From Candidatus Eremiobacteria bacterium (lineage in GTDB: Bacteria; Vulcanimicrobiota; Vulcanimicrobiia; Vulcanimicrobiales; Vulcanimicrobiaceae): DNA of 64,000 nucleotides. Made by a program: the position numbers. Location of the stretch: positions 672,001 to 736,000 of the forward strand of contig CAVWUU010000004.1 of NCBI GenBank assembly GCA_963758295.1, read 5' to 3'. Shown piece after piece: positions 33,001 through 36,000 of this stretch. How positions within the stretch are numbered: position 1 is the first letter of the stretch; each line of letters starts with the position of its first letter.

Positions 33001-36000
33001 GCCCAACGGCTCGCTCTGGGTGACCGACCCGGGCGCAAACTCGATCTGGCAGGTCACGCCCGCCGGCGTCACTTCGCAGTACGCCTTGACCACCGCGAAC
33101 GCCGATCCGACGTCGATCACGATCGGCCCCGATAGCGCCATTTGGTTCGTCGAAGCGAACTCCAACAAAATCGGGAAGCTGCTGCCGAACGCCGCCCCAG
33201 GCACCGCCCCGTCGGAATTCCCGGTAACGGGTACCGGCCTCGGCGTGATCATTTCGGGAAGCGACAACGCCCTGTGGTTCACCGAGACGACGAGCAAGAA
33301 CATTGCCCGCATGCTGACCAACGGCACCGTCTCGAGCGAAAGCCCGCTCACCGGAATGCAGGCGCCCTTCGGCATCGTGCTCGGGGGCGACGGCAACTTT
33401 TACATCGGCGACGAGACCGGCAGTCAAATCGGCCAGTACAATCCGACGAACGCCGCAATCAAACTCTTCCCGACGAAGAGCACGCCGTCCAAGCCGTACA
33501 TGTTCGCACTTGGCCCCGACAACGAAGTCTACTTCGGCGAACAGGCCTCCAACAACATCGGCCAGTTCCGCTACTTCTAACTTCGTACAATAAAAAAGCC
33601 GCGGCGTTTGCCGCGGCCTTTTTAATTTGTCATCCTGAGCTTGTCGAAGGAAAGGCGCATTTCACGACGGCCCCTTCGTCATCCTAAGCTTGTCGAAGGA
33701 CAGGCGCATATCACGACGGCCCCTTCGTCATCCTGAGCTTGTCGAAGGACAGGCGCATTTCACGACGGCCCCTTCGTCATCCTGAGCTTGTCGAAGGACA
33801 GGCGCATTTCACGACGGCCCCTTCGTCATCCTGAGCTTGTCGAAGGACAGGCGCATATCAGCGACGGCCCGGATGCGCCTCTGGTTCGACAAGCTCACCA
33901 TGACGGCATCGCGCCCCTTCGTCATCCTGAGCTTGCCGAAGGACAGGCGCATATCAGCGACGGCCCGGATGCGCTTCTGGTTCGACAAGCTCACCATGAC
34001 GGCATCGCGCCCCTTCGTCATCCTGAGCTTGTCGAAGGACAGGCGCATATCAGCGACGGCCCGGATGCGCCTCTGGTTCGACAAGCTCACCATGACGGCA
34101 TCGCGCCCCTTCGTCATCCTGAGCTTGTCGAAGGACAGGCGCATATCAGCGACGGCCCGGATGCGCCTCTGGTTCGACAAGCTCACCATGACGGCATCGC
34201 GCCCCTTCGTCATCCTGAGCTTGTCGAAGGACAGGCGCATATCAGCGACGGCCCGGATGCGCCTCTGGTTCGACAAGCTCACCATGACGGCATCGCGTCC
34301 CTTCGTCATCCTGAGCTTGTCGAAGGACAGGCGCATATCAGCGACGGCCCGGATGCGCCTCTGGTTCGACAAGCTCACCATGACGGCATCGCGCCCCTTC
34401 GTCATCCTGAGCTTGTCGAAGGACAGGCGCATATCAGCGACGGCCCGGATGCGCCTCTGGTTCGACAAGCTCACCATGACGGCATCGCGCCCCTTCGTCA
34501 TCCTGAGCTTGTCGAAGGACAGGCGCATATCAGCGACGGCCCGGATGCGCCTCTGGCGACAAGCTCACCATGACGGCATCGCGCCCCTTCGTCATCCTGA
34601 GCTTGTCGAAGGACAGGCGCATCTCAGCGACGGCCCGGATGCGCCTTTGGTTCGACAAGCTCACGATGACGGCATCGCGCCCCTTCGTCATCCTGAGCTT
34701 GTCGAAGGACAGGCGCATATGACCATTGCGAATTGCGACCACTCAAGCAGTCCATACCCCGAGCGCACACCGAGCAGAACTGTTTAATTGGCGCGGATAT
34801 TTGGCATAAGAGTAGTGTCAAGTCAGAGCGAGAGGTTTAGTCCAATGGCTTAGCTTGCCAGGGCTGGGATTTTATCCCAGCCCAAACTTTTTTCTTAAGT
34901 TCGTAAGCCGCGCATGACGGTGTCCATCTGTTGCGCGATGTTTTGGAAAAGCTGCGGGCCGACGGATCCCAACAGCGGGATCGCGATGGACATCATGATG
35001 AGGCCCACGCCGATTTGCAGCGGCAGGCCGATGACAAACACGTTCATCTGTGGCGCCACGCGCGCGGCGAAAGCCAGGGCGACGTTCGTAAGGAACAGCG
35101 CGAGCACGACCGGCGCAGCGATCTTGAAGACGATGAGAAATGCCTGCGTGAGAAAAATCACGATATTGCCGGCGACGGCCGGGTCCAGGTTGATGAACGG
35201 CAGCGGAACGAGAGTGAACGAGCCGGCGATGCCCTGGATCAGCAAATGGTGCGCGTCGGTCGCAAGGAAAATCAGCGTGGCGATGGCGAGCTCGAATTCG
35301 CCGATGATTGTGACCTGCTGCTGGGTCGCCGGATTTAGAACATTCGCTACGGCGAACCCGATTTGCAAGTCGATGAGTTCGCCGGCAAACTGAATGCCGA
35401 TGAAGACGAGCTGCGCCACGAATCCCACGATCATGCCGAGGACGACCTGACTTACGATGCCAAGCGTCAACCCGTAAAGATCCGTAGAGGCCGGCACGAT
35501 CGGCACGACGCGGAACAGCATGAACGAGATGAACGCCGAGAATCCAAAACGCGCGAGAATCGGCACTTGCGGCGCGGAGAAAATCGGGAAGACGAACAGC
35601 ATCGCCGTCACTCGTACGAAGACGAGCAAAAACGTCTCGAACTGCGCCCCGGTTAGTCCAAAGACGTCTACCATCGGCCCACTACTTCACGAAGTGGGCC
35701 ATATTGGAAAAGACACGACTCATGAAGTCGGTCAAGACCGCCAAAATGAACGGGCCGAAGAACAGAATCGCGAGCGCCGATATGACGATCTTCGGAATGA
35801 ACGCGAGCGTCGGTTCTTGGATCTGCGTTACAGCTTGAAAGATCGAAATCACGAGACCGATGATCATGCTTAGAATGAGCACCGGGGCGGCGGCGACAAG
35901 GGCCACGAAAATCGCTTCGCGTCCAAGCGAGATGGCATCGCCGAAGCTCATTGTTTGAAGCTCTGAAAGAGCGCCGCAACGGTTAAGTTCCAGCCGTCGA

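Follow-up and report, generated by a model that had tools for sequence, protein, structure and literature searches.

An array of tagged hairpins between two convergent genes

The window, a 64-kb stretch of the genome of a Candidatus Eremiobacteria bacterium, holds a 1.1-kb array at 33629-34720, in which sequence reading and TRF reveal about 23 copies of a tagged hairpin. The array lies between a Vgb_lyase-family gene that ends at 33580 (+) and a Bac_export_1 gene that ends at 34895 (-). Across the whole window the loop motif GAGCYYGTCGA occurs 23 times against 0.54 expected, a count that was reached in 0 of 100 shuffles; 20 of these motifs (12 on the + strand, 8 on the - strand) belong to the array, where about three additional degenerate copies become visible on reading the sequence. 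The TRF periods and this excess over shuffles bear out the array that a preliminary description of the locus had placed at 33626..34720. The features of the window are as follows.

33629..34720, both strands: BIME-like array of about 23 hairpins, between convergent genes
33629..33870, + strand: sub-array of 49-nt direct units (TRF: 4.9 copies, 96% matches)
33719..34720, both strands: sub-array of 96-nt units (TRF: 10.4 copies, 95%)
33825..33905: example of a head-to-head dimer, REPIN-like, with GTCA tags outward
5693..5720, - strand: one tagged copy, intergenic, with gatB (5798-7297, -) on one side and an ORF at 3645-5693 (-) on the other
15896..15990, - strand: hairpin dimer, in frame in dnaE (ORF 14468-17830, -)
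49996..50047, - strand: one full copy (loop 50026-50036) and an adjoining partial degenerate copy

The 49-nt unit is composed of one TCCT/AGGA-type hairpin and a 25-nt spacer, and the 96-nt unit is a head-to-head dimer whose + copy has the stem TCCT/AGGA and whose - copy has the stem TGGT/ACCA, the two halves being linked via the 8-bp inverted repeat AGGCGCAT/ATGCGCCT. Outside the array, the copy beside gatB stands in sense orientation, with a degenerate partner and a partly duplicated gene end next to it, while the dimer within dnaE translates to ...FAPRHPELVEGQAHINNAPDAPMARPAHYD..., placed between the NTPase and finger domains.

At the sites inspected in the window, neither a clean target-site duplication nor an insertion boundary was readable. 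When the gatB gap was compared between empty and filled sites, the relatives proved just 72-85% identical, with a spacer too diverged for exact boundaries, and four runs of public reads yielded neither length variants of the array nor empty sites. Public-data matches to sampled words came from soil metagenome contigs only (7-14% of words), with no RNA run among them.

A covarying hairpin behind a conserved tag

In the genome as a whole the loop motif is found 239 times, exactly the number given in the preliminary description, and 204 of these matches have the stem and/or the GTCA context. All four stem pairs are intact in 188 of the 239, distributed over several stem types (TCCT/AGGA 115, TGGT/ACCA 49, CCCT/AGGG 9, TGCT/AGCA 9 and TCGT/ACGA 6); since such paired variants occur, the stem covaries. 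The repeats share a conserved block, which extends over about 40 nt (C-GTCA-T-SS-T-GAGCYYGTCGA-A-SS-A-C-RGGCGCAT) rather than the ~32 nt first proposed. Its 5' tag is well preserved among the 239 matches, with C at -9 in 170, followed by G in 208, T in 212 and C in 215, and the CGTC tag continues with A in 210 and T in 204. The 3' partner of this AT is AC in the present genome, and the 9-position stem also contains two G/A positions per side. In other phyla the loop contains an inner mini-stem (GC/GC) capped by a GNA triloop, with GA/GA on its sides. The element had been described as a 4-bp stem over an invariant loop; the covariation of the stem stands, the invariance of the loop gives way to this inner mini-stem, and judging from its sequence the hairpin is better read as a 9-position imperfect stem. 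Nearest-neighbor DNA folding lends it weak thermodynamic support (-2.2 to -5.3 kcal/mol; z-scores between -1.3 and +1.0), and for the TCCT type prefers another local stem over the hairpin.

Within the arrays of this genome + and - copies alternate, and each array has a spacer specific to it. Elements with a duplicated 5' half are frequent. With its tagged hairpins, dimers and arrays, the family was correctly judged to be REP/BIME-like.

Placement behind genes and orientation

The copies are unevenly spread: 110 of the 239 loop matches lie within positions 500-750 kb of contig C4, which reproduces a concentration already reported. Using crude ORF calls we counted 42 places: 20 between convergent, 13 between tandem and 3 between divergent genes, with the other 6 inside ORFs, against a background of 541 convergent, 1700 tandem and 539 divergent intergenic spaces; the 60 places reported previously differ from our 42 because mismatched copies were counted too. 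The genes of ribosomal-protein operons beside which copies had been noted (rpoA|rpsD, rpsM, rplO, rpsJ|tuf, rpsL) were confirmed by Pfam, and in ribosomal-protein operons five tagless copies stand directly upstream of ribosome-binding sites. Where tagged copies in tandem contexts all point one way, they are in sense orientation in 10 of 10 places, whereas viral contigs carry 20 sense and 22 antisense copies. An earlier statement that the element has no strand bias fails for the tandem contexts of this genome, and given the even split in viral contigs the sense bias is not general.

The enrichment behind gene 3' ends, the uniform sense orientation in tandem contexts and the tagless copies ahead of ribosome-binding sites would suit hairpins that act mainly as RNA, that is as 3'-end stabilizers, processing sites or protein-binding hairpins, with the link to a nuclease described below being secondary. 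We consider this improbable, because the viral contigs are evenly split, head-to-head dimers place both strands in any transcript, and in-frame copies are tolerated within dnaE and phage structural genes; moreover, Rfam has no family that matches the hairpin, as had been found before, and RNA was left unbound by the tested Ssn enzymes, according to the available text of PMC11893778. Three readings drawn from the sequence alone, as a K-loop, a CsrA site or a hammerhead-like structure, were dropped after a DNA-level partner turned up. An origin from tmRNA or tRNA, prompted by a metagenomic locus (L069) where a hairpin abuts a T-arm and ACCA, was likewise discarded: ARAGORN finds no gene there, and the tmRNA of the present genome is ordinary and free of the hairpin.

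With respect to replication, the putatively cleavable strand lies on the presumed lagging-strand template in 15 of 16 tagged single copies on C4 and in 0 of 3 on C1. The GC skew is weak. The closed genome of a relative (G020) displays no clear orientation switch relative to replication.

Distribution among relatives, phyla and phages

Copy number within the family ranges from 0 to 498, with 9, 20, 65, 168 and 453 copies in the closed or near-closed genomes, in agreement with the strong variation among relatives that had been noted. At least 65 copies are present in seven relatives (G003, G006, G010, G011, G012, G020 and G021). The hairpin class spans at least 15 phylum-level groups and also reaches phage contigs; a Hymenobacter genome has 334 pattern matches and an Acidobacteriaceae genome 135. 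The exact 23-mer with the loop TTGT was observed 8 times, and the three with readable locus titles come from three phylum-level groups. An identical 22-mer had been claimed for many phyla; the sharing across phyla is real, and what is shared is a wider pattern with a free loop 4-mer. Phage structural genes, including portal and capsid genes, carry in-frame copies, and among 128 ORFs that flank hairpins on phage contigs we found ordinary phage structural genes and no recurrent transposase.

The BIME-like layout, the tagged hairpin and the head-to-head dimers recall a classical REP/REPIN family, which a RAYT (Y1 transposase) encoded in the unassembled 18% of this incomplete genome might move. 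Such an explanation appears very remote to us, given that no Y1_Tnp was found in the present genome or in 23 of 24 family relatives, among them the closed or near-closed high-copy genomes G010, G011 and G020 (the one match, in G019, is in a genome with 0 copies), and that the tag is CGTC/GTCA rather than GTAG. The lack of a RAYT, already pointed out in the preliminary description, is upheld here and in the high-copy relatives. Five genomes of other phyla (6 to 334 copies) gave a similar picture, with a hairpin within 1.5 kb of 0 of 12 Y1_Tnp loci.

Two further candidate partners were rejected. A DUF559 nuclease is not supported, as PF04480 has no match in the present genome. An IS30-family element might have been the mobilizer, since one genome (G044) has three copies of a 1.1-kb IS inside hairpin pairs; this element has terminal repeats of its own and the central spacers of the pairs differ, so it targets the hairpins and does not own them.

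A hairpin-flanked GIY-YIG nuclease gene in high-copy relatives

The preliminary description had named no enzyme and left the mode of spread unexplained. We found a GIY-YIG ORF of 99-107 aa in 7 of the 7 family relatives with at least 65 copies, flanked by the hairpins themselves, a finding that fits the published Ssn/SRM system and supersedes that view. In five of the seven (G003, G006, G010, G011 and G020) the exact hairpin stands on both sides of the gene, inverted and with its tags outward; in G021 the upstream copy is degenerate, and in G012 copies are present upstream only. At the G006 locus the printed sequence reads as an inverted terminal repeat of roughly 43 bp. Among the relatives with 27 copies or fewer the gene occurs in 3 of 17 (G008, G014 and G018), where it lies between long-loop variants of the hairpin. 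Taken over nine loci of relatives, five have the exact pattern on both sides, three have variant or degenerate hairpins and one is one-sided. A weaker GIY-YIG match of 135 aa was also seen in G015.

The association between gene and hairpin extends to metagenomes. A scan built on six closer sequences returned 584 relatives, and of the best 80 of these, 72 had enough flanking sequence: the pattern stem4-GAG...CGA-stem4' was found upstream (+) in 55, downstream (-) in 61 and on both sides in 47, and the exact loop of the present genome bracketed the gene in 24 of these 72. Shuffled flanks gave 0.7 and 0.8 on single sides and 0 on both, and distal flanks gave 0 of 41 on both. As a negative control, UPF0213/YazA-like GIY-YIG loci from orders f2 and f3 (0-5 motif copies) had hairpins on both sides in 0 of 16. 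In other phyla a local hairpin variant brackets a small GIY-YIG gene in six loci.

Acidobacteriaceae, L292, L289 and L301: small GIY-YIG gene inside local hairpin variants
Cyclobacteriaceae, L311; Mucilaginibacter, L288; Pedobacter, L293: small GIY-YIG gene inside local hairpin variants

As called, the nuclease ORFs of the relatives span 94-122 aa, with one over-extended to 171 aa, and have a single domain (PF01541, residues 4-76, E 2.5e-19) with no second one. Y7, Y17, G19, R27, H31 and E65 are invariant in 15 sequences, and Y7, Y17 and E65 correspond to Y6, Y17 and E64 of N. meningitidis SsnA (PMC11893778, available text). Among solved structures the UPF0213 proteins 1ZG2 and 1YWL come closest, followed by SLX1. 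The proteins score 30-52 bits against N. gonorrhoeae SsnA and 50-69 bits against B. subtilis YazA, and are ~40% identical to Neisseria SsnA; that of G003 is 45-54% identical to plasmid-borne homologues in S. parapaucimobilis and M. bullatum. Supplementary Data 4 of PMC11893778, in its accessible part, places a cd10448 homologue in Sphingomonas parapaucimobilis and Methylobacterium bullatum, in strains and assemblies other than those compared here, so that the relatives' proteins are placed in the Ssn clade (cd10448) by indirect evidence.

In the present genome (82% complete) a PF01541 search yields only a frameshifted uvrC, and tblastn of nine nuclease proteins from relatives returns translated repeats only. 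Since the assembled sequence is devoid of the gene, its hairpins are either orphans or their gene lies in unassembled DNA.

The hairpins as probable sites of an Ssn-family nuclease

Taken together, the repeats are probably the hairpins that an Ssn-family nuclease with a single GIY-YIG domain has as its cognate sites, and the array is largely explained by this recently described kind of hairpin and ssDNA-cutting nuclease rather than being new. The autonomous unit, about 0.4 kb long, would run from a left hairpin through a nuclease gene of ~100 aa to an inverted right hairpin, and its ends would have given rise to single hairpins, head-to-head dimers and arrays that lack the gene. Local tandem duplication of a unit with one or two hairpins and the array-specific spacer may then enlarge arrays such as 33629-34720. 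By analogy with the tested enzymes, the nuclease is predicted to bind the folded top strand solely as ssDNA and to cleave it a short distance (a few bases) to the 5' side of GTCA; if it does, the repeat would therefore be a DNA-level feature, selfish or domesticated, and not an RNA signal. Two conserved features, the C-GTCA-T tag and the C that follows the palindrome, are positions described as critical for cutting and binding in the available account of PMC11893778. We infer that the nuclease is what spreads the hairpins.

Alternatively, the gene might be a passenger, or occupy a preferred landing site, and the hairpins might spread through host processes (replication slippage at hairpins, gene conversion) or another enzyme, leaving the family of the present genome as a decaying relic. 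Its 204 copies are kept there without the gene, the array-specific spacers fit local duplication, 5'-half duplications of the element are frequent, an IS30-family element likewise targets hairpins, and what the available text of PMC11893778 demonstrates is cleavage rather than transposition. We nevertheless hold this to be unlikely, because hairpin variants switch along with the lineage of the nuclease (short- versus long-loop in G008, G014 and G018, and the Bacteroidota variants), the gene is found in every one of the seven high-copy relatives, and non-flanked UPF0213 paralogues are not targeted.

With the Ssn-family reading, an apparently enzyme-less orphan repeat would become a case of a hairpin-nuclease system. 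More tentatively, the GAGC-N4-CGA hairpins and their WEKQLKGW-type nuclease could form a distinct and very widespread sister lineage of the characterized Ssn/NTS pairs, with recognition via the internal G/A-flanked core instead of a long perfect stem, activity on the lagging-strand template, spread between phyla by phages and in-frame entry into essential genes such as dnaE; we regard this combined picture as possible, though rather doubtful as a whole. Were it true, it would supply the missing enzyme for the CGTC-tagged REPs reported in 2013 without a transposase. The published motif search would under-count such systems, the hairpin class being abundant in soil phyla. For annotation, arrays yield spurious ORF calls, and real genes (dnaE, phage portal and capsid genes) hold in-frame insertions. 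Further pairs of hairpin and nuclease might also serve as site-specific ssDNA tools, a use promoted in the available text of PMC11893778.

Comparison with known repeat systems

Like REP/BIME and REPIN-RAYT systems (PMC3116915, PMC2817692), the present family consists of tagged extragenic hairpins in dimers and arrays behind genes and is linked with an enzyme gene that is present once and has its own repeats as neighbors. It differs in its tag, GTCA instead of GTAG, and in its partner, a GIY-YIG nuclease instead of an HUH Y1 transposase.

The element had been presented as unnamed, yet its kind is already known, as it is built like the CGTC-tagged REPs that Di Nocera et al. surveyed in 2013 (PMC3733652), which include Neisseria dRS3 and Rickettsia RPE-4/RPE-6 and for which the available text reports no transposase. 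In both, AT follows a terminal CGTC tag, the hairpin has ~9 positions, head-to-head dimers prevail, copies lie between convergent and tandem genes and occur in frame inside replication and repair genes, and no transposase flanks them. Measured against the rules set out in the accessible part of the survey, the hairpins of the present genome have the unpaired terminal CGTC (or TGTC/CCTC) tag and the head-to-head dimers, and lack an 8-9 bp stem that starts with complementary A-T and has at most one mismatch. Compared with these rules, the stem here is broken by two G/A positions per side, and the 3' partner of AT is lost in the present genome; because the rule allows at most one mismatch, the survey would have dropped this hairpin. 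In addition, large clusters, which the survey calls rare, are common here, and the phyla go well beyond the five that the available text lists. Our literature search found no paper that joins the CGTC tag, REP and GIY-YIG, nothing on repeats in the literature on UPF0213, COG2827 and YhbQ, and, for strings of hairpin DNA and peptide, no match or unrelated primers only.

The closest system is Ssn (Chenal et al., Nat Commun 2025, PMC11893778), for which we rely on the available parts of the paper. Its architecture is hairpin-ssn-hairpin, the repeats being named NTS in Neisseria and SRM more widely, and SsnA, a GIY-YIG protein of 94 aa, binds the hairpin solely in its ssDNA form, cuts upstream of it, and binds neither RNA nor dsDNA. 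Flanking SRMs accompany 71% of Ssn homologues, and among genomes with more than 200 SRMs, 81% have a homologue and 19% do not; movement of the repeats by Ssn is not part of what these sections demonstrate. The published SRM search sequence overlaps 0 of our 204 elements and has 10 matches in the present genome against 28-44 in shuffles. In the Hymenobacter, Sphingomonas and Methylobacterium rows inspected, SRM fold-enrichment is 0.76-1.38, and the GAGC-N4-CGA hairpin class is absent from the text and 14 supplementary files. The class thus escapes the search motif, and this, its presence in so many phylum-level groups and phages, and the in-frame dnaE site go beyond the published work.

As far as the available text allows the comparison, in both systems inverted tagged hairpins bracket a gene for a single-domain GIY-YIG protein of ~95-105 aa (here, in relatives). 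In both, the same hairpin recurs in tens to hundreds of gene-less copies, carries a 5' tag of CGTCAT type and has a conserved C following its palindrome, and the distribution is phyla-wide with orphan genomes. Unlike in Ssn/SRM, the hairpin described here encloses a conserved GAGC-N4-CGA core in an outer stem of 4-5 bp, and its tags point outward, whereas those of Neisseria Ssn point toward the gene.

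Architecture of the hairpin array and its element

The repeat family is real, and the preliminary description of it was good. The window holds 23 loop motifs against 0.54 expected, and its hairpin array occupies one intergenic space:

33629–34720: hairpin array between a convergent Vgb_lyase-family gene (end 33580) and Bac_export_1 gene (end 34895)

Five 49-nt direct units are followed by about ten 96-nt units, each a head-to-head pair of a + and a - copy with an 8-bp inverted repeat between them; the + copy reads CGTCAT-CC-TGAGCTTGTCGAA-GG-AC, and in the - copy GG/CC replaces CC/GG. 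Spacers differ from array to array across the genome, which fits local tandem duplication. The array is separated from the Bac_export_1 gene by 175 nt (34721–34895), which close with a G+C-rich hairpin and an ensuing T run (about 34850–34895, + strand) that look like a terminator, with no preceding ORF. Elsewhere in the window (5716–5800), about 35 nt of the upstream gene's 3' end are present twice by a single copy, which is accompanied by a decayed second hairpin (GTCATGGTGA..CGA).

The genome, G000 (3.03 Mb, 6 contigs, 60% G+C, 82% complete), carries 239 loop motifs, 204 of them with hairpin and/or tag context, and the conserved block is C-GTCA-T-SS-T-GAGCYYGTCGA-A-SS-A-C-RGGCGCAT. The stem is maintained, since five complementary versions occur and all four positions pair in 188 of the 239 copies. 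Nearest-neighbour folding gave low stability (-2.2 to -5.3 kcal/mol), and covariation therefore carries the case for the stem. As an observation on the assembly itself, uvrC is broken across several reading frames (contig C3:40400–42000; locus L270), which suggests indel errors of long-read assembly; such errors may also depress the completeness figure.

Placement and insertion of copies

By crude ORF calls, 20 copy places were convergent, 13 tandem and 3 divergent, with 6 within ORFs, against background spacings of 541:1700:539 (convergent:tandem:divergent), which upholds the preference for gene 3' ends described earlier; the copies reported in ribosomal-protein gene gaps were likewise borne out. 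In G000, all 10 tandem-context places with one-way tagged copies were sense, a pattern not separable from replication-strand bias, whereas viral contigs had 20 sense and 22 antisense copies and thus no such bias. Outside the window, five copies lack both the tag and the GGCGCAT tail (C4:449021, 449180, 449209, 472877 and 1178411; loci L428, L429) and share the 5' flank TTTTTA(A/G) on the + strand. The four that were mapped are antisense to adjoining ribosomal-protein genes (- strand), directly 5' of a AAAAAGGA ribosome-binding site, and the tagless copies may form a separate, possibly RNA-level, subclass.

One dimer lies within a replication gene, between its NTPase and finger domains:

15896–15990, - strand: hairpin dimer in frame within dnaE (ORF 14468–17830, DNA polymerase III alpha)

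The site is empty in the congeners G002 and G005 and in G009 and G011, while a third congener, G003, has a bigger multi-copy insert at the same loop. Boundaries of the dnaE insert are blurred, with no readable target duplication. In the printed sequence, one G003 copy has its own core interrupted by a further insert of about 50 nt. An extra copy of the element's 5' half, GTCATCCTGAGC, often lies 3–11 nt upstream of a full copy (L044, L057, L106, L124, L125 and other loci), as if replication had restarted inside the core. In the Acidobacteriaceae genome G044, an insertion sequence of the IS30 family, 1.1 kb long and encoding a 334-aa transposase, stands on contig C1 near 1.917, 2.104 and 3.586 Mb (L271, L272, L273); all three insertions occupy the identical position within hairpin pairs whose central spacers differ, and the element is an IS targeting the hairpins, comparable to the targeting of REPs by certain IS elements.

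Spread across phyla and phages

When one genome per species was searched for GTCATCCTGAGC-N4-CGAAGGA, at least 130 loci matched, and the 80 titled loci among the matches listed represent 15 or more phylum-level groups: Acidobacteriota, Chloroflexota, Bacteroidota isolates (Hymenobacter, Pedobacter, Mucilaginibacter), Verrucomicrobiota, Planctomycetota, Gemmatimonadota, Bacillota, Saccharibacteria, Omnitrophota, WOR-3, Nitrospirota, Bdellovibrionota, Cyanobacteriota, Pseudomonadota and Eremiobacterota/Vulcanimicrobiota. Among the matches listed, the free 4-mer of 157 copies was most often GCAG (52), GAAG (37), GGAG (12) or GTAG (11), with CTGT (9) and TTGT (8) also present. The first four cores have the sequence of an inner GC/GC mini-stem capped by a GNA triloop. 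The G000 loop is accordingly one form of a shared layout: tag, outer stem, GA, inner element, GA, outer stem.

Viral contigs contained 119 stretches with the same pattern, adjoining portal, capsid, MuF and tail genes; in about 20 cases the hairpin is in frame within an ORF of at least 300 aa and encodes ILRSAQDD, VILSEAKD, HPERSEGS or SFASLRMT. In a Vulcanimicrobiota MAG (L069:300–353), the exact 23-mer stands directly next to a stem resembling a T-arm and an ACCA-bearing acceptor end. ARAGORN called no tRNA or tmRNA there; duplication of a tRNA 3' end at a site of integration may account for the stretch.

A GIY-YIG nuclease gene as probable partner

The absence of a RAYT, the Y1_Tnp transposase partner of REPs, was confirmed: PF01797 had no match in G000 or in 23 of 24 family relatives, the sole match being in G019, with copy number 0. 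None was found in the closed or near-closed genomes G011 (168 copies), G020 (65) and G010 (453), and no hairpin lay within 1.5 kb of Y1_Tnp at any of 12 loci compared in five genomes of other phyla (6–334 copies).

A GIY-YIG gene of 99–107 aa is instead present in all seven family relatives with at least 65 copies (unpublished genomes G004, G013, G024 and G036 enter tallies only). The element stands on both sides of it, tag outward, in G003, G006, G010, G011 and G020, with an inverted terminal repeat of about 43 bp read from the printed G006 sequence; the upstream copy is degenerate in G021, and copies are upstream only in G012. Among low-copy relatives 3 of 17 have the gene (G008, G014, G018), flanked by long-loop variants; a weaker GIY-YIG match in G015 falls outside this count. 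G044 has a GIY-YIG ORF of about 90 aa exactly bracketed by two inverted copies, and Cyclobacteriaceae, Mucilaginibacter and Pedobacter show like layouts, each with a local hairpin variant. The gene was not found in the G000 assembly (82% complete).

Inverted hairpins flanked both sides of 47 of 72 evaluable metagenome loci encoding nuclease relatives, from the best 80 of 584 by score; both-sided hairpins numbered 0 in shuffled flanks, 0/41 in distal flanks and 0/16 at UPF0213/YazA-like control loci from neighbouring orders. The gene–hairpin association is strong, yet allows no clean statistic because the relatives are interdependent and the metagenome loci were the best-scoring ones. The protein consists of a GIY-YIG domain alone (PF01541, E 2.5e-19), in which Y7, Y17, G19, R27, H31 and E65 are invariant; its closest solved structures are 1ZG2 and 1YWL (UPF0213), then SLX1.

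Comparison with published Ssn/SRM and CGTC-REP systems

According to Chenal et al. (2025, PMC11893778), the 94-aa GIY-YIG nuclease SsnA of Neisseria meningitidis binds its NTS hairpin CGTCATTCCCGCGMAVGCGGGAATCYRG solely when the DNA is single-stranded and cleaves a few bases upstream of it, leaving dsDNA, RNA and the reverse strand alone; hairpins of a related kind (SRM) flank homologues in various phyla, and the authors liken NTS-ssnA-NTS to an insertion sequence and to REP/RAYT. Di Nocera et al. (2013, PMC3733652) described CGTC-tagged REPs, among them Neisseria dRS3 and the Rickettsia elements RPE-4 and RPE-6, as having a CGTC tag then AT, mainly head-to-head dimers and copies within replication/repair genes, and as elements that "apparently lack a dedicated transposase". 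A term search of PMC11893778 returned no mention of this 2013 classification.

The published SRM search sequence matched 0 of the 204 G000 elements, and core strings of the G000 class appear in none of 14 supplementary files of PMC11893778. Its table marks cd10448 homologues for Hymenobacter, Sphingomonas parapaucimobilis and Methylobacterium bullatum, with SRM fold-enrichments of only 0.93–1.38 in two Hymenobacter rows, 0.76 and 0.88, respectively. The relatives' nuclease, with bit scores of 81–97 against Sphingomonas/Methylobacterium homologues, 50–69 against B. subtilis YazA and 30–52 against gonococcal SsnA, would stand at the edge of the Ssn family as characterised. Tags point toward the gene at the gonococcal locus, whereas they point outward in the relatives of G000. 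By analogy, we infer that the nuclease would cut the G000 hairpin variant. The conserved tag and trailing C of the G000 element are positions critical in the Ssn/SRM system (PMC11893778), its architecture is common to CGTC-tagged REPs (PMC3733652), and we explain the repeat family as a divergent class of hairpin within the kind of system already published as Ssn/SRM and CGTC-REP.
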